Positions 3,123 to 31,570 of a stretch of 64,000 nt of DNA are shown piece after piece. The stretch's first letter is position 1. Each line of letters starts with the position of its first letter. The notes beneath the pieces are model-generated. The model worked only from the letters and a program-made list of their open reading frames with translations. It was not told the DNA's origin and searched no databases. This DNA comes from Candidatus Parachristensenella avicola (GTDB lineage Bacteria > Bacillota > Clostridia > Christensenellales > UMGS416), in contig CAJFUN010000028.1 in NCBI GenBank assembly GCA_904420205.1, forward strand, positions 4,568-68,567, read 5' to 3'. The translations under genes were made by a program, and so were the position numbers.

Positions 3123-3300
3123 GATCGGTCACTCCTTTCGCTTTTGCCATCATACAATGATCTCTGCCCGCACGCAAGAGCTCCCCAGAGGGGATGTCTG
3201 GGAAAAGACCCGTCAAAATCCCTTGCGAAATCCTTTTCGTCTGCTATAATAGAGGTATTTAGGGAATAAATAGGGCGCCAGCCCGGAAAGAGGACACAAG

Positions 3301-4134: not shown

Positions 4135-4150
4135 CCGCCGAAACGGCGTA

Positions 4151-4186
4151 AATAAGGACGCCCTTCCATGGGAGGGCGTCCTTATT
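4151..4186. terminator. bidirectional intrinsic terminator between convergent genes
   Basis: Perfect 14-bp stem aataaggacgccct (4151-4164) / agggcgtccttatt (4173-4186) with an 8-nt loop, sitting between the stop at 4134 (+) and the stop at 4318 (-). Confidence 0.75.
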
Positions 4187-4317
4187 GTTTACCTGCTATC
4201 CTGTTGATTGGGCTTTCCGCTATCCTCCACAGCCCCTTCAGAGGGTCTCTACAAATCGCTGCAAATTTCGCAGCATTTGTACTCCCCATCTTTTATGCCA
4301 GTATATCACTGCACATT

Positions 4318-5481: not shown

Positions 5482-5603
5482 GGCGTCTTCTCCTTTTGGC
5501 AAATTGGTCTGGCTTTTTTGTCTTATACATATAGATTACGGGGCATCGCCAGCGGAATCGGGGTCGCGAATAAGATTTTCATTGAATTTCTTAATTGCGT
5601 TAT

Positions 5604-7414: not shown

Positions 7415-7579
7415 TAACGCACTCCTGTCTACATATAGGATACGATGGCCCCATGCTTTTTACAGGGTTTTGACATCCATAAATTCAAATAAACCCATTA
7501 TGGACTGTATACAGGATTGGTAAATTTATTGTCATTGCAGGGTAAAATTCATGTAAACCTATTGCAGCAGATACACCGC

Positions 7580-10714: not shown

Positions 10715-12554
10715 TGCAAGGCCTGCCCCACCCAGGGGCCCCGGCGGACCAGGCGGCCATGGGGGGCCTCGCGGAATGGCTATGGTCCGCGAAAAGCCGA
10801 AGGACGTTAAGGGTACGGTTAAGCGCTTGGTGCGCTACATCGGCTCCAGCCGCTATCTCTTCTTCAGCCTGCTGGCCATCATGGTTTTCGTCACGTTGCT
10901 CTCTTTGGCAGCGCCGGCGCTGCAGGGCTATGCTATTGACGCAATTACGTTAAAAGAAGGTCAGCTGCACGTGGATTTCCCCCGGATGGCGTCCATCCTC
11001 ACGCTGCTTTCAGCCGTTTATATCGCCTCCTCTTTGCTAACCTATCTACAGGGGCTCTTTTCGGCTAAGCTCTCTCAGCAGACGGTGCGCGTCATGCGCG
11101 GCGATCTTTTTGAAAAGATCGTCCACTTGCCCATCCGTTATCTGGATACCCATCCGCACGGCGACATCATGAGCCGCATGACAAATGACGTGGAGAACAT
11201 CTCCAATACGATCTCCCAATCCATCGGTTCGCTTTTCTCCGGCGTGCTTACGCTGATCGGGTCTGTGGCGATCATGCTGTACTACAGCCCCATGCTCACG
11301 CTGATCAGCTTTGTCACCGTAATACTCAGCGCCTTGGCCACCCTGGTAATGAGCAAATTTATGCGCAAGTATTTCGCCGCCCAGCAGGCGCTGCTGGGGC
11401 AGCTCAACGGCCAAGTCGAGGAAATGGTCACCGGCTACAAAACCGTGGTCGCCTTCAGCCGAGAGGATACGGCTAAACGCGAATTCAATGAAACCAGCAA
11501 TCGCCTGCAGGATACCGCCATTCGCGCCCAGATCTTCGGCGGCGCCATGGGCCCGCTGATGAACGTCATCGGCAACTTTGGATTTTTGCTTATCGCAGGT
11601 TTTGGTGGCTGGTTCGCCTTGACCGGCGCTATCACCATCGGCACCATTCAGGCCTTCATCCTCTATGCCCGCCAGTTCACCCGGCCCATCAATGAAATCG
11701 CCAACCTATATGGACAGATTCAGACGGCGCTGGCTGGAGCGGAGCGCGTATTCTCCATTCTGGATCATGCCAGTGAGCGTCAGGAAGCTGCGGGCACTTT
11801 AGACGTAGCGCAAGTGAAGGGGGATCTGGATTTCCGCCATATTTACTTTGGCTACGTGCCCGGCGAACCGGTGCTGAAAGATTTTAATCTAACCGTCAAA
11901 AGCGGTCAGAAAGTGGCTATCGTCGGGGCAACGGGCTCCGGCAAAACCACCTTGGTCAACTTGCTAACCCGGCTATATGATATCGACAGCGGGGAAATTC
12001 TGCTGGACGGGCAAAACATCCAGGACATTCCCCTAAGCGAACTGCGCCGTAGCATTGCGATCGTACTGCAAGATACGGTGCTCTTCTCCGACACCATATC
12101 TGCCAACATCCGTTACGGCAGGCTGGATGCCCGCCAAGATGAGGTAGAGGCCGCTGCCGCTACCGCTAATGCCGACCACTTTATCGCCCAGTTGCCCCGA
12201 GAGTATCAAACGCAGCTGAGCGAATCCGGTGGCAACCTGTCCCAGGGGCAGCGGCAGCTCCTTTCCATCGCCCGGGCAGTGCTGGCCGACCCGAAAATTC
12301 TCATCCTGGACGAGGCTACTTCCAGCGTGGATACCCGCACCGAGATGCATATCCAGCAGGCCATGGTTGCGCTGATGGCGGGCCGTACCAGTCTCATCAT
12401 CGCCCACCGGCTATCCACCATCCGGGACGCGGATAATATCGTTGTTATTGAAAACGGCCGCGTAGCTGAAATGGGCAACCACGACCAGCTGCTCTCGGCC
12501 AAAGGCTGCTATTGGCGGCTCTATCAGAACCAATTCGCCGGCATCGCCACCTGA
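10707..12554 (+). CDS. ABC exporter, fused permease/ATPase subunit (heterodimer partner 2)
   Basis: 615 aa. Walker A GATGSGKTT, signature LSQGQRQL, Walker B ILILDEATS. Overlaps the upstream gene by 8 nt. Confidence 0.9.
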   Translation: MSNARPAPPRGPGGPGGHGGPRGMAMVREKPKDVKGTVKRLVRYIGSSRYLFFSLLAIMVFVTLLSLAAPALQGYAIDAITLKEGQLHVDFPRMASILTLLSAVYIASSLLTYLQGLFSAKLSQQTVRVMRGDLFEKIVHLPIRYLDTHPHGDIMSRMTNDVENISNTISQSIGSLFSGVLTLIGSVAIMLYYSPMLTLISFVTVILSALATLVMSKFMRKYFAAQQALLGQLNGQVEEMVTGYKTVVAFSREDTAKREFNETSNRLQDTAIRAQIFGGAMGPLMNVIGNFGFLLIAGFGGWFALTGAITIGTIQAFILYARQFTRPINEIANLYGQIQTALAGAERVFSILDHASERQEAAGTLDVAQVKGDLDFRHIYFGYVPGEPVLKDFNLTVKSGQKVAIVGATGSGKTTLVNLLTRLYDIDSGEILLDGQNIQDIPLSELRRSIAIVLQDTVLFSDTISANIRYGRLDARQDEVEAAAATANADHFIAQLPREYQTQLSESGGNLSQGQRQLLSIARAVLADPKILILDEATSSVDTRTEMHIQQAMVALMAGRTSLIIAHRLSTIRDADNIVVIENGRVAEMGNHDQLLSAKGCYWRLYQNQFAGIAT

Positions 12555-12676
12555 CGGGCCATATTCTTTCAAATCTTTACAGATTTGTCGAATCCTTGCA
12601 ATAGATTTGTTACAGCACTGAAAAACATGGCTGCTATACTGGGTGAGAATAATTCTTGGACGAGGAGGGCTTTGCC

Positions 12677-12811
12677 ATGCTGCAACGCCAGATCCGCCGC
12701 TCCTTGGTGCGTCCTGCTCCGCCGGCCAAAAAGATAGCTGAATGGGCAGCCGGTGCTGTAATGCTGCTGCTATTGCTGCTCGCCCCTGCGCTGATCGGAT
12801 TGCTGCACTAA
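12677..12811 (+). CDS. small (44-aa) single-TM protein candidate
   Basis: Not in the ORF track (too short). My translation is MLQRQIRRSLVRPAPPAKKIAEWAAGAVMLLLLLLAPALIGLLH. GAGGAGG RBS about 8 nt upstream. Followed directly by a terminator. Confidence 0.4.
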   Translation: MLQRQIRRSLVRPAPPAKKIAEWAAGAVMLLLLLLAPALIGLLH

Positions 12812-12817
12812 AGGTCC

Positions 12818-12852
12818 GCCCCCTTTCGTAAGCGGAAGGGGGCTTTTTTCTT
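12818..12852 (+). terminator. intrinsic terminator
   Basis: Stem gccccctt (12818-12825) / aagggggc (12836-12843) followed by T6. Confidence 0.75.
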
Positions 12853-12919
12853 ATTAAGCAGGATTTCGACCGCCGACCGCGAATCATAGTGTGAATCATG
12901 TAGTCAGGGAGGATTACCC

Positions 12920-13975
12920 ATGAATACCCATGAACGTTTTGCCCGCATGTACGCCCATCAGGAGGCGGACCGGGTCCCGATGATGGATAGCCCTTGGGAT
13001 ACGACCATTGAGCGCTGGCGGCGGGAAGGCATGCCCACCGACGACTATATTGCCTACTTTGATCTAGACCGCATCGGCCGAATTGACATCGACTATTCGC
13101 CTCGCTATCCGGTGGAGGTGCTGGAGGAGACGCCGGAATACGTTATCCACACCACCGGCTGGGGCGCTACGCTGAAGACCTGGCGGCACATGACCTCCAC
13201 GCCGGAATTTCTTGACTTTAAAATCAAGGATGAAGCCAGCTGGGAGGAAGCCAAGGCCCGGATGAAGCCTGATCCTGCCCGGATCAACTGGGATTACCTG
13301 AAAAAGAACGTACCCGTCTGGCAGCGCGAAGGGCGCTGGATTATCGGGAATTTCTGGTTTGGCTTTGACGTGACCCACTCCTGGGCCGTAGGCACAACCC
13401 GCCTGCTCTATGCCATGGCGGACAACCCTGAATGGGTAGAAGATATGTTCAACACCTATCTGGATATAAATCTTGCCATGATGCAAATGGTGCTGGATGC
13501 CGGGTATCCGGTGGACGAAATCTATTGGCCGGACGATATGGGCTACAAAAATACCCAGTTCTTCTCGCTCAACATGTACCGTAACCTGCTTAAGCCGGTG
13601 CAAAAACGCGCGGTGGACTGGATCCATGAACGCGGCATGAAGGCCCACCTGCACTCCTGCGGCCTGGTGGATAAGTTCGTGCCTGAATTTGTGGAAATCG
13701 GGATTGACGCCCTCAATCCCCTTGAAGTCAAGGCTGGCATGGATCCCGTCGCTTTGAAGGCCGCGTGGGGCGACCGTCTTGTTTTCCACGGCGGGATCAA
13801 CGCCGTGCTGTGGGATCAGCCTGGGCAGATCGAGGCCGAAATGGAGCGGGTCATCCCCATCATGAAGGAAAACGGGGGTTATATCTTCGCCTCTGACCAT
13901 TCCATTCCCGATTCAGTCAGCCTGGAAGATTTCACCCATATCATCGAAACCTACAAACGGGTCGCCCAATATTAA
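12920..13975 (+). CDS. uroporphyrinogen decarboxylase (URO-D/MtaA-like) family protein
   Basis: 351 aa. The N-terminus MNTHERFARMYAHQEADRVPMMD and the overall length are typical of clostridial URO-D-like proteins. Confidence 0.65.
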   Translation: MNTHERFARMYAHQEADRVPMMDSPWDTTIERWRREGMPTDDYIAYFDLDRIGRIDIDYSPRYPVEVLEETPEYVIHTTGWGATLKTWRHMTSTPEFLDFKIKDEASWEEAKARMKPDPARINWDYLKKNVPVWQREGRWIIGNFWFGFDVTHSWAVGTTRLLYAMADNPEWVEDMFNTYLDINLAMMQMVLDAGYPVDEIYWPDDMGYKNTQFFSLNMYRNLLKPVQKRAVDWIHERGMKAHLHSCGLVDKFVPEFVEIGIDALNPLEVKAGMDPVALKAAWGDRLVFHGGINAVLWDQPGQIEAEMERVIPIMKENGGYIFASDHSIPDSVSLEDFTHIIETYKRVAQY

Positions 13976-14012
13976 GGGCGGATAAAGCTGCTTGATCGAC
14001 GCTCACATTGAA

Positions 14013-14050
14013 GGGCCCTGCCGAGGCATCATGATGCCTTGGCAGGGCCC
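14013..14050. terminator. hairpin terminator between convergent genes
   Basis: 18-bp stem with one mismatch: gggccctgccgaggcatc / gatgccttggcagggccc. Confidence 0.6.
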
Positions 14051-14136
14051 TGTTATTCCGAGGCGCGATCCGTTTTACCCAGTATCTCGGGATCAACATT
14101 CGCAGGCTGTCCGCCGGTTTTTTTCCCGCATCCAGG

Positions 14137-14898
14137 CTATATTTCCACCGTCATACCGTCGACGGCCGCAATATAGGGCAGCTTGAGCGAAGCTTCCAGC
14201 TCCGCCTTAGGGGGGTGGAGCGTACGGGCTAGGTGCGTCAGGTATACACGTCCGTCTGCTTTCAGCTGGCCCGTTGCCTGAAAGGTCTGCGTCATCATTC
14301 GTACCATGGGCAGCGAATTATGCTCAAACACCCGATAATCTCCGTCATGGCCGTCGCCAATCGTCGCGTCGATCACCAGCGCGTCAAAAGGCTCCCGCGC
14401 CCGCAGGGCCGCAACCGCAGCATAGGGCATCCATGCTCCATCCGTGGCATAGACCAACGTCCTTCCCCCGCAGCTGATGCGGTAATGCACCGGCCGCTCC
14501 TTCGGGAACCGGGGAATATGATTAGCCGGAAGCGGTAGGACCTCATACCCTGCTGCCTGAAAGGGTTCCAGCGGCTTCAGCGGACAGGCCCGGATATGGT
14601 CGCCGCTCACTTCGCCGGCCCACCCAGCCTCCACATGCACAATAAGCGGGGATTCGCCGCGCGCTTTGCGCCTCGCCGCCAGTTCTTTGAGCGTATCCAG
14701 GCAGAAATGGTCCCGGTGCCCATGGGTCAGGCATACATCCTGCACCAAAGCGTCCGGCGCAAGCAGCTCCAAGGCCGTGGCCGGTGCGTCCAGCATCAAT
14801 ATGCCGTCCAGCAGCGCCGATGAAAAGCGGCGAATCATACCGGATTCATCGGGCTGTTCCCAGTCGGCCGCGCCTGTGCCTAAAAACGTAAGTTTCAT
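14137..14898 (-). CDS. MBL-fold metallo-hydrolase
   Basis: HGHRDH motif. Start set to ATG 14898 (MKLTFLGTG), which has an AAGGAG RBS; the track ORF extends to 14943. Confidence 0.8.
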   Translation of the reverse strand: MKLTFLGTGAADWEQPDESGMIRRFSSALLDGILMLDAPATALELLAPDALVQDVCLTHGHRDHFCLDTLKELAARRKARGESPLIVHVEAGWAGEVSGDHIRACPLKPLEPFQAAGYEVLPLPANHIPRFPKERPVHYRISCGGRTLVYATDGAWMPYAAVAALRAREPFDALVIDATIGDGHDGDYRVFEHNSLPMVRMMTQTFQATGQLKADGRVYLTHLARTLHPPKAELEASLKLPYIAAVDGMTVEI

Positions 14899-14958
14899 GT
14901 CCGGCTCCTTCATAAAATGCCGGGCGCGATATGCGCCCGGCATTTTGCGTATCGGTCA

Positions 14959-16440
14959 TTAGGCAAAGGGGTTCTCGGTTTTATATAGCATGTGCTTAGG
15001 CTGATTAAAGGCCACGTCCTCCACGCCCAGAAGCCGCATGGCCGCAAAGAGCACCTTGCCCGCCTCACCAAAGGCTACCGCACCGTGATGGGGGTACCCT
15101 TTTTCGATGAGCACGTGGCGGTAAAAACGCCCCATTTCCGGAATGGCAAAAATGCCGATGCCACCGAAAGACCGGGTGGCCACGGGAAGAATTTCGCCCT
15201 GAGCCACATAGCTATGCATAGAAGTATCGGCGGCGCTCTGCAGCCGGAAGAAGGTAATCCGGCCGCTCTTGAGGTCGCCCTCCAGCGTTCCCCGGCTGAT
15301 ATCCGGTTCGCCATCGGGCTCCAAAGAGCGCTTCATAATCAGCTGATATCCCATATGGGGGTTCTTCAGGTAGCAGGCGGGCGTATTGCCACAGTGGAAG
15401 CCCATGAAGGTATCCTTCTGCGTGTAGGCATATTTGCCTTGAATCTCGCTTTGGAAGATGTCGGCCGGCACCGTGTTGTTAATGTCCAGCAGCGTGGGGG
15501 CCGCTCCGGTGGCGCAGCAGGCAATATACTCGCTGACCGCACCCCAGATATCCACCTCGCAGGCAATCGGCATGCCTCGGGCAGCAAAGCGGCTGTTGAC
15601 ATAGCAGGGGACAAATCCGAACTGCGTCTGGAAGGCCGGCCAACATTTGTTGGCCATCACCACATACTGGGCGGCACCTTTATGGCCCTCAACCCAGTCC
15701 AGCAGCGTCAGCTCATACTGGGCCAGCCGCGGGAGCACGGCGGCATAGGGATTCTCCCCGCCCAGCTCCGCCTGCATATCGGCCATGACCGATTCAATTC
15801 TCGGATCGCCGGCATGCTTTTGATAGGCCTCAAAGAGATCGAGCTCCGAGTTTTCCTCAATGGACACGCCCAGGTCATAAAGCCCTTTAATCGGCGCATT
15901 GCAGGCAATAAAATCCTGCGGCCGGGGGCCGAAGGAGATGACTTTCAGCCCCTTAAGGCCCAACAGTACCCGGGCAATGGCCTCGAAATCGTGAATCATA
16001 TCGGCTACTTCGGACGCTGTGCCCACCGGATATTCGGGAATATAGGCCTTGACGCCCCGGAGTTTCAAGCTATAGCTGGCGTTAAGCATGCCGCAGTAGG
16101 CGTCGCCCCGGCCGTCCACCAGGTCTTCCCCGCTCTCCTCGGCGGCAGCCGCGAACATCACCGGGCCGCCAAAGCGCTCGGCCAGCAGGGTTTCCGGCCC
16201 CTCCGGCCCAAAATTGCCCAGGTATACCACCAGCGCGTTCACACCAGCGGCTCTGAGCTCTTCCAGCGCCTGCACGGCGTCCGTCTCATTCTCAATGATG
16301 GTGGGGATCTTTTCAATGCCGCCATAGCGGGCATTGTAGGCCGCAGTCAGGCTGTCTCGGCGGCGCTGGGACAGCGTGAGGGGAAAGCAGTCGCGGCTAA
16401 CTGCGACCACGCCAAGTTTGACACAGGGCAGATTATTCAT
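14959..16440 (-). CDS. L-fucose/L-arabinose isomerase family protein
   Basis: The N-terminal KLGVVAVSRDCFP.. and central GNFGPEG..AYCGMLNASYSLKLRG pattern fit the FucI-like family. The start is uncertain (16440 preferred on RBS spacing; track start 16512). Confidence 0.6.
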   Translation of the reverse strand: MNNLPCVKLGVVAVSRDCFPLTLSQRRRDSLTAAYNARYGGIEKIPTIIENETDAVQALEELRAAGVNALVVYLGNFGPEGPETLLAERFGGPVMFAAAAEESGEDLVDGRGDAYCGMLNASYSLKLRGVKAYIPEYPVGTASEVADMIHDFEAIARVLLGLKGLKVISFGPRPQDFIACNAPIKGLYDLGVSIEENSELDLFEAYQKHAGDPRIESVMADMQAELGGENPYAAVLPRLAQYELTLLDWVEGHKGAAQYVVMANKCWPAFQTQFGFVPCYVNSRFAARGMPIACEVDIWGAVSEYIACCATGAAPTLLDINNTVPADIFQSEIQGKYAYTQKDTFMGFHCGNTPACYLKNPHMGYQLIMKRSLEPDGEPDISRGTLEGDLKSGRITFFRLQSAADTSMHSYVAQGEILPVATRSFGGIGIFAIPEMGRFYRHVLIEKGYPHHGAVAFGEAGKVLFAAMRLLGVEDVAFNQPKHMLYKTENPFA

Positions 16441-20720: not shown

Positions 20721-22274
20721 CTATCGAATCACAATATCCCGGGCAAAATCCATAACCTTCACCCGTGCCGCCGCAAGGGTTGTCACCGGCTTGCCGTTCA
20801 GCCGCAGGTTTTCAATGAGGATATCCCGGGTATCGTGTTCGTCATCAAAGCCCTGAAAGGTCGAGGGCGGCATTTTAGGCGCAGAAACCTCGATATTGCG
20901 AAAAATAATGTGCCGGTTCCGGCCCCGGCGGCTCAGTCCCCCGGAATATTCCGGATGCTGGTATACGATGGCGCACATCAGCTCGGGCATATAGTCGTCC
21001 TCCGGGTTTTCCGGATAGGTCTCTCCGTCGCGCGTCTGCAAATAAGGTCTGCGGCTTGCGCCGTCATATTCCACCCGAATATCCTCAAATATGACATCGT
21101 GCACATGGGCATAATCCACATTCTGCACATCCATCACAATATGGCAGGCCCGGATAATATCGCAATTACGAAAAACAATGTGGTCGATCTCTTCCACCCG
21201 GGTTTCTGCGCCGATCTCCAGGCAACGGCCCCAATCGCACCAGATCACGCAATTCTCCGCCAGATAATCGCGGCAATCCTGACTGTATACCGGCTTTTCA
21301 TCCTTCCCTTCAGGGGTTATGACGCCAAAGTTCCCCTTGATACACAGCGCGTCGTCATAGGTGCGGATAAAGCAATTCTCAATATGGATACGCTGGCAAT
21401 TATGCAGGTCGATGCCGTCGGAATTATAGCGCCAGCATCCGATAATCTTCACCCGGTCGATATGTACGTCTACGCAGCCTAGCAAAGCAATGTTGTAAAC
21501 CAATGAATCCCGGATGGTAATTCCTTCAATGGTTAGGCCTCTACAGTCCCGGATATCAATGGTATTGGCCCGCCGGGCGTTGCCCACGTCAAAGCTGCCC
21601 ACCTTGCCCATGCAGATGTCGTCGCCATCTTCTACTACGCCGGAGGAAGATTCACCCTCTGCCGGGACGGGCTCCACCTGAAAAAGGATTTCTTCCTTAT
21701 TACGGGAATTATCCAGGATTCCGCGGCCTATGATACGCACATTGTCCGCATCTTTAGCCTCAACGGTGGCATAGAGCACCGCGCCCTCATCCAGATACAG
21801 CGTCTGGTTGCTGGTTAGCGTGATCACCCCGCATTCGTGAACGCCGGGCCCAAAATAAATAACATCCGGATCCTCTGGGCGGACCGCATCTTGCTCCGGA
21901 GGGTCCGCCAGGATATGCAGCGCATGATGCGGCCCGTCCAACTCCAGCGTATATCCGCCCGGCTCGGTCAGCGTAAAGCTCAGCCTACGGCCCTGCCGCG
22001 CGAGCTTTACGCCTTTGGAGAGGGGACGGATCACAGCTTCTTCAAAATCCTTCTCCACATCCACGGTAAAGTGGGCGCTGCCTTCCATGGAAAACGAAAC
22101 AAAGCCCGCTAATTCCGACTGAGCGATCTCTCGCTGATGACCCGGCCATCGCCGGTTGATAGGGGCGGCGGATACCCGCATCTGTCGGAGCAGTGCAGGC
22201 TTTCCGTCAATCAACACGCTATAGCCTGTAGCCAAGGATTCGCCCTGTGGAATCGGATAGATATGGGATGCCAT
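20721..22274 (-). CDS. glycoside hydrolase family 28-like (right-handed beta-helix) protein
   Basis: NSDGIDLHNC and YDDALCIKG correspond to the GH28 NTDGID / DDCIAIK motifs. Start ATG 22274 is preferred because the upstream pseudogene ends at 22292. Confidence 0.7.
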   Translation of the reverse strand: MASHIYPIPQGESLATGYSVLIDGKPALLRQMRVSAAPINRRWPGHQREIAQSELAGFVSFSMEGSAHFTVDVEKDFEEAVIRPLSKGVKLARQGRRLSFTLTEPGGYTLELDGPHHALHILADPPEQDAVRPEDPDVIYFGPGVHECGVITLTSNQTLYLDEGAVLYATVEAKDADNVRIIGRGILDNSRNKEEILFQVEPVPAEGESSSGVVEDGDDICMGKVGSFDVGNARRANTIDIRDCRGLTIEGITIRDSLVYNIALLGCVDVHIDRVKIIGCWRYNSDGIDLHNCQRIHIENCFIRTYDDALCIKGNFGVITPEGKDEKPVYSQDCRDYLAENCVIWCDWGRCLEIGAETRVEEIDHIVFRNCDIIRACHIVMDVQNVDYAHVHDVIFEDIRVEYDGASRRPYLQTRDGETYPENPEDDYMPELMCAIVYQHPEYSGGLSRRGRNRHIIFRNIEVSAPKMPPSTFQGFDDEHDTRDILIENLRLNGKPVTTLAAARVKVMDFARDIVIR

Positions 22275-22291
22275 CGAAACACACCTTTCTT

Positions 22292-23124
22292 TCATTGCTT
22301 TACCGGCTGACACTTAGGGCGGTAATAGATATTCCCGCCAAGATACGCCTCCCGGATGATCCCGCCACCGCAATGGGGCAGGGGAATTGATACGTTTTAC
22401 TGGACAGCATGACCGGGTACCGCCGCGGGCGCCCGAAAAGATCTTTTCCGTGCTGCGCCCGCCTTCGTCCGTCATAGCCCGGAGCGTGTCCTTCCCGCTG
22501 TGATACAGCCCTCCGAATGCTTCATCAGTAAGCAAGTTTAGCTTGGTTTTTGGATTAACCCCTACCATAAAGAGGATATCCTGCAAAACCCCATTTCCCA
22601 GGCCGGAATGCGCTGTTCTGAAGCGGGGAATGCTTTTACCGTGATAGCCGGTTTCACTATGCTGCGGCACAGGCTATCGAAATACGCTTCATCGAAGGGC
22701 TCCGCCAGCGGAGACGCCTTCGTCCTGGCTCCCCGATACTATGCGTTATCCGTCATGCCCTCTTCCGGGAAAACCCATATCCTTCCATACATCTGGATGG
22801 TGCATAGGAGGCTGCGTCCATCATCCAGCTCCATATATAGCTGATGCTTGGCCGGATGCTTTTCCCCGGGGCCATAAAGGCGAAGGTTGGCGCCATCGCT
22901 TACCACCAGGCGCGTCTGCTCTATATGAAGCTGAACGAATCCCCCGAAGGATGAGGCACCGTCGATCATCCGTCCCTCCAGAAGCGGTGTGTATTGGGCC
23001 GGATCACCGCAATAAGAGGCAAACGGTGGAGCGACGCTGCCGCGGCCAGCCGCACAATACGCCGGCCAACTAGATTCATTCGCATCTCCTGAGCCAAATT
23101 TCCCGCTTTCGGTATTTCGATCAT
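22292..23124 (-). pseudogene. Fpg/Nei (endonuclease VIII-like) DNA glycosylase pseudogene
   Basis: Pieces lie in three frames. MIEIPKAGNLAQEMRMNLVGRRIV is my translation from ATG 23124. The middle part ends in an in-frame TAG (22739-22741). The H2TH motif GLGNGVLQDILFMVGVNP is in another frame, and the Zn-finger remnant CGGGIIREAYLGGNIYYRPKCQ in yet another. The 833-nt span is not a multiple of 3. Confidence 0.75.
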
Positions 23125-23380
23125 GGCCTATCCTTCTGCGGCGTTCTCTCAAAGGCACACCGTTTTTCCCGCGGTGCTCAAGGCTGCGGCAATTGCCCCA
23201 ACCCCCAAATTGCTGATGCTGCGCTCGCCCATTCGCTGTCAAGATCAAATCCGTTTGACGCTCCTGGTCAGCCATCCATGCCGGCCTCTGATAGGATTCA
23301 TTTCGACGCAAGCAGCACTTTTCCTTCCAGGAAAAAACCGCCGTATGCATTCCGGCGGCTTGTACAAATTTTTCGTCCCA

Positions 23381-24031
23381 TTACCGGGGGCGAAGCCAAA
23401 GCTGGCCAATCCCCCACCCAAAGGTGCCGATCGCCAGGCAGCGCGGAACCAACACATCCAGCACATAACCCGCCGGCGCCATCCCTGTCAGCGAATAGAT
23501 AAAATTCAGCTGAGGCAGATCCCGATAAAGCATCAACTGCAGGCATACAAAGGCCGCCACCAGCACAAGGCCCATGCTCACTTTCCGCGTAGCGCACAGC
23601 GCCAGGAACCCAACGCCCATGACCGCATAGCCCTGCAACAGGGTCAGGAGAAAGAGATTGCCCCAAGGGATCCGCATGATCGCCGCGATGGCGGCGCATA
23701 TCAGCGCCGTCGCGGCCCCGTACAGTCCGAAGAAGCGCGCCTGACGTATGAGGCCCCAGTATAGCGGCGTGCGGGCATAAGTAAAGCCCAGTTCCCCACC
23801 CTCCGTATCCAATAAAGTCTGCATTAGCATCAGCGTGCCATAGGCGCCCAAGGAAGGAACCAACGCCTCCAGCGCCGGCAGCGTGATGGTGTTGGGCAGA
23901 TCCTGCCGGTCTAGATTGACCTGCACAAAATAGGCCGTTACCACAAAAAGGATCCCGATGATTCCTACGGCGGCCAGATGCCCGCTGATCTCCCGGAGGT
24001 CATGGCGGAATTCCCGCATCACACGCTTCAT
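23381..24031 (-). CDS. 6-TM membrane protein, probable ABC-2-type permease partner
   Basis: 216 aa, hydrophobic throughout. Its start overlaps the stop of the ABC ATPase gene. Confidence 0.65.
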   Translation of the reverse strand: MKRVMREFRHDLREISGHLAAVGIIGILFVVTAYFVQVNLDRQDLPNTITLPALEALVPSLGAYGTLMLMQTLLDTEGGELGFTYARTPLYWGLIRQARFFGLYGAATALICAAIAAIMRIPWGNLFLLTLLQGYAVMGVGFLALCATRKVSMGLVLVAAFVCLQLMLYRDLPQLNFIYSLTGMAPAGYVLDVLVPRCLAIGTFGWGIGQLWLRPR

Positions 24032-24888
24032 AGCGCCCGATCCCTCCCCAACAGATAGGTGTAGCTATCCTCCAAGGTGGGGATGGCCGCGCCGTCGGCT
24101 TGCTCGTCCAAATAGCGCACCCGGTATCCCTGGCCGGTGGGCGCAAAGGAGATGACCGTATGATCCTTTTCCAGTCTCCGGAATGCCGCCTCCTCCATGA
24201 CCTGCTCCTTAACATGGCCGCCGGCCTCCGCCTGGATGGCCAGCGTGGAACCGCTCGTCACGATCCGTCCGTGGTTCATAATGGTCACCTGGTCGCAGAG
24301 GCTTTCCACATCGTCCACAATATGACTGGAAATGAGGATGATCCGCTGCCCATCGGCATAATCCCGGATCAGCTTACGAAGATGGATGCGTTCCGCCGGA
24401 TCCAGCCCCACTGAGGGTTCATCCAGGATCAAAAGCGGCGGTTCACCCAGCACCGCCTGGGCGATCCCCAGCCGCCGCAGCATACCGCCGGACAGCTGGC
24501 CCACCCGCCGGTTGGCGTATTCGGTCAGGTTGGCCCGTTCCAGCGCCAGTTCCACCTGATGCTTTTCCTGTCCGGCCGGCACATCCTTCAAAAGTGCCAC
24601 GTCCCGCAGCGCTTCGGCTACCTTGAGGTATTTATACATGCTGAACTGCTGGGGCAGGTAACCAACCTTTCCCTTAATGCCGCGGGGACGGCTCCAGTTC
24701 AGCTCGCCCCATACGATTTCGCCCTTGTTGGCGTCCAGGATCGTGGCTAGGATGCGCATCATCGTCGTTTTACCCGCCCCATTGGGCCCCAAAAGCCCCA
24801 CAATGCCTGGAGCAAAGGTAGCACTCACTTCGTTCAGCGCATCCACCCGGCCAAACTGCTTGCATAAGCCCTTGATGACGATATCCAT
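24028..24888 (-). CDS. ABC transporter ATP-binding protein (ABC-2/DrrA-like)
   Basis: Walker A GPNGAGKTT, signature LSGGMLRR, Walker B LLILDEPSVGLD. ATG 24888 (MDIVIKGL) has an AAGGAGG RBS. Confidence 0.9.
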   Translation of the reverse strand: MDIVIKGLCKQFGRVDALNEVSATFAPGIVGLLGPNGAGKTTMMRILATILDANKGEIVWGELNWSRPRGIKGKVGYLPQQFSMYKYLKVAEALRDVALLKDVPAGQEKHQVELALERANLTEYANRRVGQLSGGMLRRLGIAQAVLGEPPLLILDEPSVGLDPAERIHLRKLIRDYADGQRIILISSHIVDDVESLCDQVTIMNHGRIVTSGSTLAIQAEAGGHVKEQVMEEAAFRRLEKDHTVISFAPTGQGYRVRYLDEQADGAAIPTLEDSYTYLLGRDRAL

Positions 24889-24889
24889 G

Positions 24890-27100
24890 CTACGCCTCCT
24901 TATTCTCATAAAGCATCTGGATCACTTCGCTGATTGGGATCACTTCCCGCTTCAGCAGCCGCTGATACCAGGCGCGGAAGGTGTCCTCAAAGCTTTCCCC
25001 CGCGCGCATGCGCTCCAGGATGGTACGAACCTGTTGCTTTTCCGTCTTGGTCAGGTGATGTCTATCCTCTTCCGGGGTTGGAACACCCATGTAGGTATCA
25101 TAGACAGTGTCTAAATCGTAATTGATAAAATCACTGACTTTCAGATCAAAGGTTTCATCATCCCACGTTTCAGCTGTTAAACCATATTGATAAAACATTC
25201 CAAACAGGTAATGACCAGTATGGGAACTATCCACCGGATAGCCAGTGCAGGGGTTCACCAGATAGCCGGCCACAAGGTCGGCATTTACCTTAGAAACAAA
25301 ATCCTCCGGTCTTTCGGAACTCCACCACAACCACCAAGAGGAAATAGCATACACATTCTCTTGGCGGACCTCCCAGCGTCCGCCCCGGCTGTATAGTTCC
25401 TGAAATCCAACATCCGAGGGATAGGGAATCTGGACAACAACGATTTCCTTGGGGGCTTCCGGCATGCGCAATACACCCATTTTTTCGCTATGTTCCGCCA
25501 GGATCGGATAGGCCTCCGCTGCGGTGGCCCCGTAATCCTGAGCCACATCGAACACGCTGGCCGGCGCGTAAACTGTAACCTCCCGCGCTTCGTCCTCATA
25601 GCGCACCATGCCGCTGTAAAGGGATACGCCATCGCGGGAAAGACCGCTGTAGATGCCGCCGTCCGCTGTCAGATTCGTATACAGATGGCCCGGGCCTCGA
25701 TAGCGCAGGGTATAGGCAACCTCATCCTCCCGCTGCCAATCCTCTATGAAGAAATCTTCGGAAAGGTAATAATCATAAATATTACGGTATCTGGTATAGG
25801 TCTTTATCCCCGGCCATGGGATCCAGGGGAAGGAGCCGTTGAGCTGCACGGTGGTCTCATTGGCCGGATAGATGGGCAGGCTATAGCCATGGTAAGCGAA
25901 TTCCACGGTAATGGCGTCTCCAGCCGCCTTCTCCGCTGGAAAATTAACCATCAGGCCGTCGTGGCTGCGCTCAAAGGCGGCTGGCTGTCCGTCCACCATC
26001 ACCTCATCCACCTGAAAGTCGGAATACAAGGTGAAAGACTGGCCGGCTGCCGCTTCCGTCATCTCGCCCTGGATGGTGACCCGGCAGCGGATGCCCTGGG
26101 TGGAGCTGGTAAAGTCAATGTCCGTCTTTTGGAGCTTAATCCGCTTTTCCAGCGGGAAAGCGTCGGTCAGGCTCACCGGTTCTCCTGGACGATATAATAT
26201 ATATTTTCCTTGTGCATATTTCATTGCAAGGTCTTGTGCTCCAAAGCGTTCATAGAACACATGATATCGGGCGCACATGCCACCGGCAAAGACGACCGTC
26301 AATACGGCGGCGGCGGCGGAAACCGCCAGGCCCTTTCCCCTCTCCCGTCGGAGGCCGGCCCGGCTCAGGCTTCCGCCCACATAGGCGAGTCCCGCCATTA
26401 CCAGCAAGCCTAACCGCGCCAGCCACCGGGGCAGCTCCAGCGCCGGCCCTGTCAGGAAATTGCCCGGATACCGGAAGCTCTCAATGCCCATGTTGAAAAA
26501 GCCCTTCCAAAATCCGCTGTTGGGTACGCCCGCCGTCTCCAGCATGCTGTATATATCGCTGCCGATGCTGGCCGTCAGGATCCAGATGGCCATGGCCGGA
26601 AGATAGACGATCTTCCCTTGGATCCATTGGCTCAGCAGCAGGCCGGTCAGGCCTAGGAGTCAGCAGGGCAGGCAGTACTGCAGCAGGATATCCCCGGTTA
26701 GCTGTCGCAGCCAAAGCCCTGGTGCGCCCTGGATGACCGGTCCCGCCAAGCAGCCCGCCATCATCACAGCGCTTACCAGTATAGCCATCGCACCCATCGC
26801 CAGCACCTGGCCCAAGGCCCATAGCAACGGGCCCTGCCGTAATGTCGGGATGACGGCCCGAAAGCCCATGCTATCCTGTTCCCGTTTGGTCTCAATGCCC
26901 ATCATCAAAAAGGTCAGCGTCAGCACCATCTGGCCATAGGCCGCCATGTGCAAGGCCATATATTTGGTACCGGGCTCTTTATAGACGAAATAGTAGCACC
27001 CCAGGCTGCCCGCCAGCCCGATTGCCAATAACAGCATCCATTTGATGCTTCGGAAAAAGGATTTGAGCACGAGGCCGGAGATGCACCAAAGCTTTTTCAT
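24890..27100 (-). pseudogene. ABC-associated polytopic membrane protein with a ~470-aa extracytoplasmic domain; the frame is broken by one in-frame TGA
   Basis: Track ORFs 26660-27100 and 24890-26593 are in the same frame. The 22 codons between them read LLGLTGLLLSQWIQGKIVYLPA without a stop. The only interruption is the TGA at 26660-26662. It may still be expressed as 146-aa and 567-aa halves. Confidence 0.6.
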
Positions 27101-27134
27101 GCATTTTACTCCTTATCCTTTACATAGCTTGTTT

Positions 27135-27166
27135 GAAAAAATGGGGTGATGTACCGACATCACCCC
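27135..27166 (-). terminator. intrinsic terminator inside the operon, after the two small secreted-protein genes
   Basis: On the minus strand: ggggtgatgt-cggt-acatcacccc followed by T6 (complement of 27135-27140). Confidence 0.8.
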
Positions 27167-27187
27167 ACTCAACTACCAGTATGTCAG

Positions 27188-27565
27188 TTATTGAGCCATT
27201 GACCCGTTACCGTTATGGTTCGCCCAATAGCAGTGGAGCCATACGCGGAACTGACCCGTCAGCGAAGAGTTCGCCCACGTCCATCTAGCGCTATCGCCTG
27301 GATATAAATCTCGGTCGCTCTTGAGCACCTCGAAAGTCGTTCCCTTAGTCAATAAGTTAGACGACATGATATTGCTAGGATCAGAGCTGGAATAGCTTGT
27401 GCCGCGGCAGGTTACGTTCTTGGCTGCCAATGTTTGATATGGGCCATACGACTGCACAGTGCCCTTGCTTATCGTTGTAGCCGATGTACCGGCCATTACC
27501 GGTGCCGTTCCGAGAGCGACAAGCAATGCGGCTGTTGCAACGGCTGTAATATGTACCTTTTTCAT
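27188..27565 (-). CDS. small secreted protein, paralogue 1 (bacteriocin-like candidate)
   Basis: 125 aa. Sec signal peptide (..APVMA/GTSA). Mature part of about 100 aa with 2 Cys. AGGAG RBS. Confidence 0.75.
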   Translation of the reverse strand: MKKVHITAVATAALLVALGTAPVMAGTSATTISKGTVQSYGPYQTLAAKNVTCRGTSYSSSDPSNIMSSNLLTKGTTFEVLKSDRDLYPGDSARWTWANSSLTGQFRVWLHCYWANHNGNGSMAQ

Positions 27566-27577
27566 TTTAATTTACTC

Positions 27578-27967
27578 CTATTGACTTGCAGAGCCGCGTC
27601 CGTTATGGTCTTTATTACCACAGTTTAACCAGATCCGGAATTGGCCAGTTTCACTATTTGGGTATGTCCAACTTTCATAATCACCAGCATAAAAATATCG
27701 ATCATCTTTAAGCACTTCAAAAACAGCACCCTTTGTCAGCAAGTTAACGCTCATTTTTGTACCAGATGCTGACGATGTATAGCTCTCCCCAATGCATCGA
27801 ACAGACCTAGCACTCAATGTCTGATATGAGCCATAACGATCCAATTGTCCCTTGCTGATAGTAGCCGAGGAAGTTCCCGCCAAAGCGGTCGTCGCCATGA
27901 GTGCCAACAGCAGCGCGGCCGTAGCAACCGCAGTTATACGCAGCTTTCTTCTCATTTGTTGAACCAT
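27578..27967 (-). CDS. small secreted protein, paralogue 2 (bacteriocin-like candidate)
   Basis: 129 aa. Signal peptide (..TTALA/GTSS). About half of the aligned positions match paralogue 1 by eye. GC is visibly lower than in the neighbouring genes. Confidence 0.75.
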   Translation of the reverse strand: MVQQMRRKLRITAVATAALLLALMATTALAGTSSATISKGQLDRYGSYQTLSARSVRCIGESYTSSASGTKMSVNLLTKGAVFEVLKDDRYFYAGDYESWTYPNSETGQFRIWLNCGNKDHNGRGSASQ

Positions 27968-28150
27968 CTTTCCTCTTGTTCAATAGCTATTGACATTTAT
28001 ATTGTATAGTATTCTTTCTATTTATCCATATACTTTTTTCACGATATATTCTTATTTTTTACTATTTAAATATATATCTCGATATATATTTTATTTTGTC
28101 GAGCAATCTTATATTTGGTCGAAATTCAAAGGTTATTCGACATCACAGCG
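27968..28150 (-). promoter_or_regulatory. very AT-rich upstream control region with phased GTCGA/TCGAC motifs
   Basis: About 180 bp, roughly 20% GC by eye. cgatatat occurs at 28042 and 28080. GTCGA at 28098 and 28118 and TCGAC at 28138 are spaced 20 bp apart. Confidence 0.5.
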
Positions 28151-28256
28151 TGATTGCCGATAACAACCAAAGCATTCAACGCGCTAAATAAAAAAATGTC
28201 TTTCCTTTACACGGAAAGACATCCTTTTTCGTTCATTTCCCAAGCCGACGCCCTCA

Positions 28257-29540
28257 TTAACTGGCGCTATCTGTCTTACAACATGCTGCCAGCACCAGCC
28301 CATGGAAAGCAATCAACCCCTCATAGGGCAGCTGCACGGCTAACGCCATGCCGAAAGAGAATCCGCCGGGATGCAGCGCTAGACCATAGCTGGCCAGCAA
28401 GATCACAAGCTCCGCCAGGGTCAAGCCCAAGGGAAGCAGAAGCAGCCGCCTATAGGGCAAGGGTTTCACATGCAGCAAAGCGCAAGCCGTCCATATGGCA
28501 CAGGCCAGCCCCATCGTCTGGCCCAACAGGCTGACACCCACCCAACCCAAGCAGGGCAGCACCTGATACTCTGCGGCATAGATGGCCTCCTGCAGCGGGA
28601 ACAAGCAGGCGGAATGGGCCAGCGCAGCCGTCGCCGCCACCAGGGCAGCCGGCCAGCACCGCCAAAAATCCCGCTGCGAAAGCGGGCGCCCTAAACACCG
28701 TGCGGCACAAAGCGCAACGAATAGCCATAGGGCCGCCGCCTGCGCGACGTCGCCCAAAACATCCAGTGGCAGCATAACCCAATCGCGAACCGAGCCGTAA
28801 TCCGCCACCGCCTCCAGCATCCGCAGCGCAAAGCCATATTGGGTGAAAAACCACACAGCCGGCGCCCACAGCAGCGAAAGAAGGCCCGACCAGCGGGTGG
28901 GCGTTTCCCCCTGGGAAAGCGGCGCCAGGCTGACGGCCAGATCCGCCAGCAGCAGGGCCGGGCCTGCCAGCGACAGCGTATCCAACACGAGCGCCGTCAG
29001 GCATGCATCGGATATGGCCAGCGCATCAGCCGCCACCCGCAGCCCCCAAAGGATCAATGCCCAAGCCACCGCGCCAAGGATCGTCGCTGCCCAGCGCCTG
29101 CCCGGGATTCGTCCGCCCCGAAGCTTATACCACAGCATCCCGGCCAGCAGGGCCGGTAGCCATCCAGCCAAGGATAGCGCCGTCCAAATCAGCTGTCCAT
29201 GGGGATAGATCGCCTCTAGCCAAGGCTCTCCGGCCCACAGCTCTGCCACCAGCGGCATCAGGCTACCCAGCCCAGCGATGCATTGGGTCGTAATCAGCCA
29301 AATCACCGCCAGCGGCGTCAGCCGCCAAAGGCTGCGCCGCCCGCCCAGCAGCGCCGGGTCCAGGGCCTTTGTCCACAGTGCGGCCGCCAGATAGCAGCGA
29401 GCCAGCGCCCAGATAAACGCCAGGAGGCCATCCACCACCATCGCGCCCTCATAGCTGCCGCCCCATTGGGGCCCTGTCAGGCAAAGGGCGCCGAAGAAGC
29501 CGGCGGCCAGCGGCATCCGTTTCTTCAGCCACCCCCTCAT
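28257..29540 (-). CDS. polytopic (~12 TM) membrane protein, unknown family
   Basis: ATG 29540 (MRGWLKKRMPLAAG) overlaps the GH42 stop (ATGA). Hydrophobic periodicity runs throughout. The region is very GC-rich, so alternative-frame ORFs abound. Confidence 0.6.
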   Translation of the reverse strand: MRGWLKKRMPLAAGFFGALCLTGPQWGGSYEGAMVVDGLLAFIWALARCYLAAALWTKALDPALLGGRRSLWRLTPLAVIWLITTQCIAGLGSLMPLVAELWAGEPWLEAIYPHGQLIWTALSLAGWLPALLAGMLWYKLRGGRIPGRRWAATILGAVAWALILWGLRVAADALAISDACLTALVLDTLSLAGPALLLADLAVSLAPLSQGETPTRWSGLLSLLWAPAVWFFTQYGFALRMLEAVADYGSVRDWVMLPLDVLGDVAQAAALWLFVALCAARCLGRPLSQRDFWRCWPAALVAATAALAHSACLFPLQEAIYAAEYQVLPCLGWVGVSLLGQTMGLACAIWTACALLHVKPLPYRRLLLLPLGLTLAELVILLASYGLALHPGGFSFGMALAVQLPYEGLIAFHGLVLAACCKTDSAS

Positions 29541-31570
29541 GGACGCGACTCCAAGATCATCACACCCCGCCCAGGCAGTTCTACTTCGCCTGCCAGGTGC
29601 TGCCCGGATATCAGATCCCATCCTCCTTCGCCCACATCCACCGAGGCCGGTCGGCTAAAATGGTTCAGGTAGAACCGGTAGGTCGTTCCTTCGGCCTCCC
29701 TTGTCGTGGCTTCGCATCCCAGCGGCAGCTGCCGCGCCGCTCGGGGAATGGCCAGTGCTTCCGCCAAATCTTGGTAAAAGTCGTCCAGGAAATCCTGCCC
29801 GGTGCGCGCAGCAATGAAATAGGCTTTGCCGCGTCCGTATTGGTTCACCGTCACCGCCGGTTCCCCGGCATAGAAATCCTCCTCATAAACGCCCAACACC
29901 TGGGCTCCCTCGGCATGGATCCGCTCAGCCATTTCTCGCACCGCATAGCGCTTACCCCTGTAGGCAACGGCATTCCCTTGCCCAGGATAATAGGCGTCCA
30001 TTTCCTCTGCCCATATCCCCATAACCTCCCGCAGCGGTCCGGGGAAGCCATTCTGGAAGCATAAGTCGTGCTCCTCGACCCATCCGGTCATGTAGGTCGC
30101 AGCCAGCGCGCCGCCCTTTTGGACGTATTCCGCCAGGCGCGCGCCGAAATCGCCTCGAATCATGTACAGCATAGGCGCAACTACCAGGCTGTATCCTTCC
30201 AAGGGGCAGGTGGAATCGATGATGTCCACATTGATCCCCTGATGGAAAAAGGCACGGTAATGCTCCACTACGGTGCGTTCGTAGTTTTTCTCCTTCATCA
30301 CACCCTGCATCTCATCCAGCGCCCAGCGGTTTTCCCAGTCATACACCAAGGCCACCCGGCTGGGCACGCCGGTCCCTGTAACATGATCGAGCTTTTCCAA
30401 CAGCCGCCCGGTTTCCGCCACCTCTTGAAACACCCGGGTTTTGTCGGTGGCAAAATGATCCACCACCGCGCCGTGGAACTTTTCATAGCCGCCTCGGCCT
30501 TTACGGAACTGGAAATACTGCACGGAATCGGATCCGTGGGCCACGGCCTGTAGGCTGGTCAAGCGGTGTACGCCTGGACGGCGCAGTTTAGCCACCGGCT
30601 GCCAATTGGTGGCCGATGGGGAAGACTCCATCATGAGGAAAGGCCGCCCGCCGCCCAATCCCCGATGCAAATCATGGCGGAAGGCCGTATCGGCGGCCAC
30701 CCAGTCATCGCCCTCGTCGTCGCGCCACAGGGGATAGTTATCCCAGGAAACCACGTCCAGCTCGCGGGCCAGTTCAAAATAATTGATCCCCGGATAGGTG
30801 CTCATCAGGTTATGGGTGATCGGGATATCCGGCGTATACCGGCGCAGCGGCTCCGCCTCCAGCCGCACATAGTCGCAGTATTGCTGGGTGGTAAAGCGCA
30901 TCCAGTCCAGTTTCAAAGCGTGCAGCACGCCGTCACCCCGGCTGGAGGGGGATTCCACCTGATCAAAATCCGTATATCCATGGCTCCAGAAACCGGACCA
31001 ATAGGCCTCGTTCAGCGCCTGAAGCGTGCCATATTTTGCCTTGATATAGTCCCGGAACGCCGCCTGACATAAAGGGCAGTGGCATTCCCCACTATATTCA
31101 TTGGAAATATGCCACATTTTCAGGGCGGGGTGCCCGGCATAGCGCTGGGCCAGCCGCCCGTTTATCTCCTGAACCTTAGCGCGGTAGACCGGAGAGGTCA
31201 AGCAGTGGTTCTCCCGGCCGCCATAAAGCTCCCGTACCCGGTCCTCCGATACCCGCAGAATTTCCGGATACTTCTGCGCCATCCAGCGAGGTTTCGCCCC
31301 CGATGGGGTTGCCAGGATAGCTGCCATATGGTTTTCCGCCAGCATATCCATCACCTCATCCAGCCATTCAAAAGTATAGACGCCCTCCTCCGGTTCCAGC
31401 GCCGTCCAGCTGAAGATGCCGACCGTCATGGAATTCATATGGGCCTCTCTGGCCAGGCGCATATCCTCTTTCCAGATTCTATCCTTGTCTTTCATCCATT
31501 GGTCGGGATTATAATCGCCTCCATGGATCATGTGGGAAATGCCCGGCAGGGCCGGTGAGAAACGCTTCAT
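29537..31570 (-). CDS. beta-galactosidase, glycoside hydrolase family 42
   Basis: 677 aa. HGGDYNPDQW near the N-terminus and overall GH42 length. AGGAGG RBS. Confidence 0.9.
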   Translation of the reverse strand: MKRFSPALPGISHMIHGGDYNPDQWMKDKDRIWKEDMRLAREAHMNSMTVGIFSWTALEPEEGVYTFEWLDEVMDMLAENHMAAILATPSGAKPRWMAQKYPEILRVSEDRVRELYGGRENHCLTSPVYRAKVQEINGRLAQRYAGHPALKMWHISNEYSGECHCPLCQAAFRDYIKAKYGTLQALNEAYWSGFWSHGYTDFDQVESPSSRGDGVLHALKLDWMRFTTQQYCDYVRLEAEPLRRYTPDIPITHNLMSTYPGINYFELARELDVVSWDNYPLWRDDEGDDWVAADTAFRHDLHRGLGGGRPFLMMESSPSATNWQPVAKLRRPGVHRLTSLQAVAHGSDSVQYFQFRKGRGGYEKFHGAVVDHFATDKTRVFQEVAETGRLLEKLDHVTGTGVPSRVALVYDWENRWALDEMQGVMKEKNYERTVVEHYRAFFHQGINVDIIDSTCPLEGYSLVVAPMLYMIRGDFGARLAEYVQKGGALAATYMTGWVEEHDLCFQNGFPGPLREVMGIWAEEMDAYYPGQGNAVAYRGKRYAVREMAERIHAEGAQVLGVYEEDFYAGEPAVTVNQYGRGKAYFIAARTGQDFLDDFYQDLAEALAIPRAARQLPLGCEATTREAEGTTYRFYLNHFSRPASVDVGEGGWDLISGQHLAGEVELPGRGVMILESRP

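Follow-up and report, generated by a model that had tools for sequence, protein, structure and literature searches.

The 64,000 nucleotides of Candidatus Parachristensenella avicola analyzed here (contig CAJFUN010000028.1; hereafter the window) carry on the minus strand a compact module, in which an AT-rich control region is followed by two paralogous genes for small secreted proteins, A and B, a hairpin, the gene of a large membrane protein, an ATP-binding cassette (ABC) ATPase gene and, last, the gene of a membrane protein of 216 amino acids (aa). It seems to be a variant, so far undescribed, of the pairing between a secreted toxin and an ABC immunity transporter, and its transporter has a new architecture. 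Three of the four module proteins belong to families without a relative by sequence in Pfam, NCBIfam or the Protein Data Bank (PDB), and no paper describing the module was found in literature searches.

Small secreted proteins and their transporter

Gene A (27578..27967, minus strand) encodes a small secreted jelly-roll protein with a precursor of 129 aa and is present in the window as a divergent allele; gene B (27188..27565, minus strand) encodes its paralogue, with a precursor of 125 aa. The two share 58% identity (E 1e-40), together with every motif that a first-pass annotation, made from the letters of the sequence, had listed for this tandem pair. The same annotation had proposed signal peptides and mature parts of ~100 aa, and both proposals hold, in that a hydrophobic, signal-like segment is located at the N-terminus of A and of B and the predicted fold is a jelly-roll of ~100 aa. 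The AlphaFold2 (AF2) model of B, with a mean predicted local distance difference test (pLDDT) score of 88.5 and means of 94-98 for ten-residue blocks from residue 31 on, is all-beta and comprises nine beta-strands. Foldseek comparison of this model with the PDB returned generic jelly-roll or beta-sandwich matches (TM-scores 0.45-0.67), including PirA, the YPM superantigen, Ena fibre subunits, carbohydrate-binding modules (CBM) and GOLD domains, and comparison with viral structures gave generic jelly-rolls only. No Pfam or NCBIfam match at E<=1 beyond chance-level ones was obtained for A, B, the large protein or the 216-aa protein, which for A and B agrees with the earlier remark that the small proteins resemble no recognised bacteriocin. 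PDB sequence-profile searches with the families of the small, the large and the small membrane protein likewise produced chance-level matches only. A match of B to Rv1352/Rv1906c (E 0.02) was treated as chance because it appeared in only one of 20 family members.

Members of the small-protein family are very rare. Four clusters were obtained from 5.8 billion proteins by a word-indexed search and 11 by its profile-based repeat, and an exhaustive HMMER search of 1.84 billion representatives gave 12 hits at E<=0.001, one of them spurious: P0047, rejected as a member, is a repeat protein of 1061 aa with a cystatin-like QLVNG motif, in which ten stretches were matched, with 36 profile positions per repeat. 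The full-length true members measure 125-139 aa, with the exception of one 208-aa sequence that has a long N-terminal extension, and all of them start with the signal-like segment. Judging by the purifying selection on A and B (ratio of nonsynonymous to synonymous substitution rates, dN/dS, of 0.05-0.09), the small genes appear to be functional.

Between the small genes and the transporter genes lies the intrinsic terminator that had been noted before, a GC-rich hairpin of 12-14 bp followed by a U6 tail (27136..27170, minus strand). It folds with -26 kcal/mol (z = -3.6), none of 200 shuffled sequences folding as well, and it was not listed by a pattern scanner. The hairpin is a probable partial terminator, or else a 3'-end stabiliser. 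A strong hairpin is located between the small and the large gene in all nine loci checked, that is, the window and eight others, and the sequences of these hairpins differ.

The large subunit (24890..27100, minus strand) had been described as a polytopic membrane protein of 737 codons with a big extracytoplasmic domain. The domain stands, as a predicted extracytoplasmic C-terminal part of ~450 aa; the uninterrupted frame does not, being broken by a TGA at codon 147. A model was built on the intact homologue P0005 (mean pLDDT 85); it begins with an amphipathic helix, continues with seven membrane helices, the fifth and sixth of which are separated by short helices, and ends in a C-terminal domain of ~450 residues. 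Our interpretation of the model is that the membrane part is ABC-2-like. Foldseek matched the C-terminal ~450 residues to M1 zinc aminopeptidases, such as LTA4 hydrolase, ERAP1 and aminopeptidase N (E 1e-10 to 1e-9, probability 1.0, ~490 aligned columns); 184 PDB matches at E<=0.001 were recorded, and the top 50 listed were all M1 enzymes. The ectodomain is thus predicted to have the M1 fold, which is defined by an N-terminal beta, a thermolysin-like and a helical domain, but the HExxH-x18-E zinc site and the GxMEN motif of these enzymes were not found. Among 32 large-protein homologues there is no HExxH and no invariant or near-invariant His, the most conserved one (84%) residing outside any HExxH, and Pfam Peptidase_M1 matched neither the window protein nor any homologue scanned; the C-terminal domain is therefore very probably not a zinc peptidase. 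Strong positive charge is found at the N-terminus and in the loop that connects helices 6 and 7 (RRERGK), so that, by the positive-inside rule, the M1-like domain would face the outside of the cell.

The in-frame TGA (26660..26662, minus strand) falls within predicted transmembrane helix 4 (TM4), is followed by C, and replaces a conserved Trp. Read with translation table 11, positions 27100..24890 give two open reading frames (ORFs) of 146 and 567 aa. Most of the family, including a full-length homologue of 94% identity, has Trp at the position, as do 11 of the 11 intact members of the same 90% cluster (735-736 aa, 91-96% identical). Five metagenome contigs from different samples span the site at 100% identity to the window; an assembly error was therefore rejected, and the stop is regarded as real and as part of a repeatedly seen clone. 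Reassignment of the genetic code was rejected as well, TGA being an ordinary stop that terminates 15 of the 50 long ORFs in the window. In the large gene, 23 nonsynonymous changes and 53 synonymous ones fall on the branch of the window, a ratio like that of intact relatives (27:74 and 8:22), so the mutation would be recent or tolerated. UGA terminates weakly when C follows, and in some Firmicutes it is decoded as Trp at a low level; given that the codon stands in place of a Trp, leaky production of the normal, full-length large protein is possible in the window strain by this analogy. With UGA instead of Trp147, the pump of this strain is either broken or made at a low level through read-through.

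The ABC ATPase gene (24028..24909, minus strand), for which an alternative start exists at 24888, just past the stop of the large gene, encodes a DrrA/GldA-like protein, and the earlier assignment to the ABC-2/DrrA type is borne out. The protein matches PF00005 at 2.6e-27 (96.5 bits against a cut-off of 25), and its best models are drrA (3.5e-51, 174 bits) and GldA (4.4e-52, 177 bits), both scores lying below the curated cut-offs; the ATPase is therefore related to both and the equivalog of neither. The model of lantibiotic-protection ATPases, TIGR03740, was also matched below its cut-off (1.8e-44). Matches to PADLOC defence models were set aside, as they amounted to generic ATPase similarity only. 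The stop of the ATPase gene overlaps the start of the last gene (ATGA), which encodes, as had been expected of this position, a small polytopic membrane protein (216 aa; 23381..24031, minus strand). It belongs to no known family and is presumed to be the second permease subunit; no homology to the TM domain of the large subunit could be detected (hhalign probability 0.15%). The three transporter genes are thus tightly packed.

Recurrence in Clostridia and a variable cassette

Large-protein loci were recovered 14 times, 13 from a species-level genome collection and one from a metagenome contig, with Christensenellales/Christensenellaceae, Oscillospiraceae, Lachnospiraceae, Saccharofermentans and Parasporobacterium as hosts. 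The large gene is followed by the ATPase gene in all 14 loci, a 216-aa homologue is encoded in 13 (it was not detected in L023), and a small-protein gene is situated directly upstream of the large gene in eight, L013 having two copies like the window. Nothing else is conserved around the 14 loci. In three additional small-protein clusters, looked up independently, the large gene likewise comes next. The order of small gene, hairpin, large protein, ATPase and small membrane protein recurs in ~12 lineages of Clostridia, throughout which every small-protein gene with enough downstream sequence precedes the large gene. Pairwise identities of the small and the large proteins co-vary over 12 loci (Mantel p = 2e-4), and the unit is therefore considered old and co-inherited. 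Four loci contain the transporter only, namely L014, L016, L017 and L019. The two tandem transporter copies of L017 extend over 2588-6332 and 9327-13050, without a small-protein gene; in the second copy the large gene is split (9327-9896 and 9911-11524), which is a second, independent interruption in the family. L020 has, just upstream of its large gene (7321-7482), an ORF of 53 aa ending in ...GNHNGTVEAWQ, the C-terminal motif of the small family, and this ORF is probably a degraded small-protein gene.

Quorum-sensing genes of the Agr/LytTR type adjoin the module in three lineages, with a full set in L024 and partial ones in L026 and L027. In L024 the module lies inside an Agr operon: downstream of the transporter come genes for AgrB, a LytTR regulator and a histidine kinase (13723-16336), and on the other side (9265-9525) a perfect 11-nt direct repeat, AAATTTCGCCA, with a spacing of 21 bp, precedes an agrD-like ORF of 46 aa (...NVSCPLITFQPELP...) that lies directly upstream of the small gene. 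L026 has a LytTR regulator and a kinase homologue, and in L027 AgrB, a kinase, a LytTR regulator and an XRE regulator are encoded just upstream.

The control region of the window (27968..28190, minus strand), the sequence of which is conserved in the related locus L013, contains a sigma-70-like -35/-10 pair found by pattern matching (TGGATA-16-TACAAT, 28028..28001, minus strand), a perfect 11-bp inverted repeat (28068-28078 / 28081-28091) and two imperfect 21-nt direct repeats. The spacings of the latter, 38 and 44 nt, differ from the ~21 bp of the paired repeats in Agr/LytTR loci. The lower GC content reported earlier for the control region and the first paralogue was found again, with values of 0.278 for the control region and 0.459 for A, compared to 0.513 for B, 0.556 for the large gene and 0.571 for the window; in the case of A it reflects the combination of a divergent A allele and an AT-rich promoter within a 1.2-kb segment that is present or absent as a whole.

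This cassette (27084..28287) unites the control region, both small genes and the hairpin with the first codons of the large gene, and its presence or absence at one fixed site among close relatives agrees with the idea of an accessory cassette. In the set of relatives with 91-96% identity in the large protein, the clone of the window and L013 have it; L012, a short related contig that spans A and part of B and ends before the large gene, is also positive. At the same site, L014, L034-36 and L037-40, the protein of the last group being found on 24 contigs, have 430-650 bp of unrelated DNA instead. These cassette-negative relatives retain no remnants and always keep the transporter. Compared to its orthologue in L013, gene A shows a dS of 0.97, whereas B, the transporter genes and the flanks show ~0.22-0.26; since the A gene of L013 is, in addition, close to that of L012, allelic replacement or recombination limited to A and the control region is suggested.

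Interpretation and rival explanations

The module is interpreted, tentatively and with a chance that comes close to even without reaching it, as a new type of secreted protein bacteriocin together with its own ABC immunity transporter, and the window strain may have it in impaired form. The basis observed comprises the gene order, the fold predictions, the conservation of the module, the hairpins, the cassette polymorphism and the linkage to quorum sensing; from it we infer toxicity, immunity, binding by the ectodomain and the outward orientation of the latter. An exported protein made in excess, loci with the transporter only, a strain-variable effector cassette and occasional quorum sensing fit an antagonist accompanied by a protective transporter. 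A promoter in the AT-rich region would drive the two paralogous small-protein genes, the equivalent promoter in other lineages apparently being under Agr/LytTR quorum sensing, and the small proteins would be exported by Sec, lose their signal peptides and be released outside the cell as jelly-rolls of ~10 kDa. The hairpin after B would pass only part of the transcription into the three transporter genes, so that the small proteins would be in excess over the transporter. The latter would be assembled from the DrrA-like ATPase and two different membrane subunits, the large one of which would show a catalytically dead M1-like domain on the outer face. The small proteins would then harm related bacteria, while the transporter would protect its owner, in that the dead peptidase domain captures the protein and ATP hydrolysis clears it from the cell surface. 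In its most far-reaching form the proposal speaks of previously unrecognised ~10-kDa jelly-roll bacteriocins, quorum-switched in some lineages, of a new ABC-2 immunity system with a dead-M1 capture receptor, carried by producers and bystanders, and of the window strain as a UGA-to-Trp read-through variant; as a whole this is rather unlikely.

Several points weigh against a bacteriocin with its immunity transporter. The small proteins match no known bacteriocin, and no family member has a known killing activity, target or immunity phenotype. Their predicted fold is uninformative on function, the jelly-roll matches are generic, and the net charge of the mature proteins, which ranges from -4 to +6 in a rough estimate that uses a crude cleavage-site guess and overshoots in places, would be without consistent cationic character. 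Selection on A and B, as estimated from the gene comparisons, appears to be purifying, not diversifying. The Agr linkage is seen in three lineages only, apparently a minority, and no Agr/LytTR homologue was detected in the 64-kb window by tBLASTN. The U-tract varies among the nine hairpins, several of which lack it. Finally, both small genes are intact in a strain whose presumed immunity subunit bears a nonsense codon, which is awkward for essential self-protection.

Part of the same evidence is compatible with a small protein that is not toxic at all, being instead an extracellular partner on which the ABC machine would act via its ectodomain, by activating, releasing or assembling it; FtsEX drives extracellular partners in a comparable manner. 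In a variant of this explanation the small protein would capture a ligand and pass it to the ectodomain, with a role in signalling, surface structure or the handling of nutrients. Such a partner accords with the strict linkage and the co-divergence of small and large proteins, with the purifying selection on the small genes, and with the fact that the strain keeps its small genes intact and tolerates a stop codon in the gene of the large subunit; it also accords with an ectodomain that, in the model, resembles a peptide-binding scaffold without catalysis, with jelly-roll matches that include fibre subunits (Ena) and carbohydrate- or lipid-binding modules, and with the signal peptidase I gene in one operon (L028). 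On the other hand, transporter-only loci are frequent and the transporter is kept where the cassette is missing, so that its role is independent of a small protein encoded in cis; moreover, sorting signals, anchors and polymerisation motifs are absent from the small proteins, and the hairpin implies their large stoichiometric excess over the transporter. A non-toxic partner is deemed unlikely, if still worth serious attention. For the window strain in particular, the module may be a decaying remnant without current function, whatever its ancestral role, the nonsense codon having inactivated the transporter. The in-frame TGA within predicted TM4, the Trp found at that position in 11 of 11 intact close relatives, and the loss of ~470 bp of a neighbouring gene along with a frameshifted Fpg/H2TH-like gene immediately downstream in the same strain favor this possibility. 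However, there is no sign that constraint is relaxed (23:53 on the branch of the window versus 27:74 and 8:22 in intact relatives), the four remaining genes (A, B, ATPase, small membrane protein) are intact, the clone is unchanged in several samples, and UGA-C is a weak stop, with UGA read as Trp at a low level in some Firmicutes; decay is accordingly doubtful, though far from far-fetched.

As to known systems, the first-pass annotation had drawn attention to the layout of lactococcin-972-type loci. As an analogy of layout this has gained strength, because the order of a Sec-dependent precursor, a large membrane protein and an ABC ATPase recurs in further lineages, whereas membership in the family fails all profile and fold tests. 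PF09683/TIGR01653 gave no match at E<=1 to A, B or any of the 20 small-family members, and DUF1430/TIGR01654 none to the large protein or its 32 homologues, so that the profile comparison with the bacteriocin family and the associated immunity family, which the annotation had called for, came out negative. The structural comparison it had also called for, by AF2 model and Foldseek, produced a confident jelly-roll with generic matches, and the lactococcin 972 beta-sandwich was not among the top 50 PDB matches of the B model. Mature lactococcin 972 has about 66 aa, and thus differs from the ~100-aa jelly-rolls of the module in size as well as in fold. Homology is refuted by these sequence and fold tests, and with nothing but the gene order in its favor, true membership of the locus in the lactococcin 972 bacteriocin/7-TM immunity/ABC transporter family is extremely improbable. 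The lactococcin 972 cluster consists of a pre-bacteriocin, a 7-TM immunity protein and an ABC transporter (PMC11161930), and lactococcin 972 binds lipid II (PMC8538875). In that cluster (lclA, the 7-TM lclB and the ABC genes), as in the module, the gene of a Sec-exported, unmodified small protein comes first and is followed by those of a large multi-TM protein and an ABC ATPase, which there are thought to protect the producer (PMC11161930, PMC8538875). In contrast, there is no kinship in sequence or fold, the permease of the module appears ABC-2-like with an M1-like ectodomain, and the fourth gene of the module would provide a second membrane subunit.

In subunit composition the LanFEG transporters, with one ATPase and two different permease subunits, would be the closest analogue; they are encoded beside the toxin gene and are also found alone. 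Here, however, the substrate would be a folded 10-kDa protein and not a modified peptide, one permease bears an ectodomain of ~450 aa, and a LanI-like lipoprotein is absent. In regulatory logic the closest analogue would be an Agr-controlled toxin combined with a protective ABC transporter. In staphylococci, LytTR-type quorum sensing drives the phenol-soluble modulins (PSMs), and the ABC transporter Pmt is needed for self-protection of the producer. Agr/LytTR genes adjoin the module in three lineages, as described above, whereas the window has no Agr genes, the small proteins have Sec signal peptides and a beta fold, and the transporter of the module probably does not export them. M1 aminopeptidases are alike in fold to the last ~450 residues of the large protein, but this domain has no conserved HExxH, is joined to a 7-TM ABC-2-like membrane part and has a predicted outward orientation. 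The PirA toxin subunit, YPM and Ena resemble the small proteins in size and in beta-sandwich or jelly-roll topology (best TM-scores 0.5-0.67), but sequence identity is as low as 4-14%, and carbohydrate-binding and GOLD domains are matched at least as well. None of the three is known to be encoded with an ABC transporter of the type found in the module. Literature searches gave nothing relevant on a permease fused to an M1 aminopeptidase or on jelly-roll bacteriocins.

If the small proteins are antagonistic, they would represent a new family of protein toxins of Clostridia (Christensenellales, Oscillospiraceae, Lachnospiraceae), several of which are seen in human gut metagenomes, together with a new mechanism of immunity. 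The large subunit would exemplify a pseudo-enzyme, that is, an M1 aminopeptidase without its zinc site serving as the extracellular domain of an ABC transporter, and the fixed-site polymorphism of the cassette among near-identical strains would constitute a natural experiment on strain competition in the gut. Were the small proteins non-toxic partners, the module would be a new ABC-driven extracellular machine.

Flanking genes and further loci

A hairpin with a T-run (28190..28228, minus strand) terminates the upstream gene of a 454-aa polytopic membrane protein and marks the upstream boundary of the unit. The 454-aa gene (29621..28257, minus strand) has an unusually high GC content (0.644) and no Pfam, NCBIfam or PADLOC match; it is syntenic in close relatives only (L013, L014, L034-40), and its last codons fall within the variable boundary of the cassette. 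An Rfam scan of 22000-30000 matched no leader and no riboswitch family. Downstream of the module (22295-23215, minus strand), the window lacks ~470 bp compared to L013 and L014, a deletion that removes most of a 205-aa gene with a weak DUF6144 match in the relatives. An Fpg/H2TH-like gene, which encodes 278 aa in the relatives, is frameshifted near 23020 in the window, so that two further lesions adjoin the module in this clone.

Additional observations concern the surroundings of the module in other lineages. In L028, and only there, a signal peptidase I (Peptidase_S26) gene (4565-5017) directly follows the small membrane-protein gene. L027 (5800-5900) and L028 (95-195), the large proteins of which are 75% identical, have in common a conserved block of ~100 nt upstream of the small gene, including the palindrome TGTGTGAGACACA; the block is a possible operator or leader common to both. 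In L025 (8820-9341) the gene next to the small gene on its upstream side codes for a protein whose N-terminal domain is TnsA-like, of the endonuclease type (E 8e-17), which hints at a mobile-element neighbourhood in that genome. XRE-type helix-turn-helix regulators are encoded just upstream of the small gene in L023 (428-1072), L033 (873-1514) and L027 (5352-5711), those of L023 and L030/L033 being flanked by two unannotated genes of ~135 and ~168 aa.

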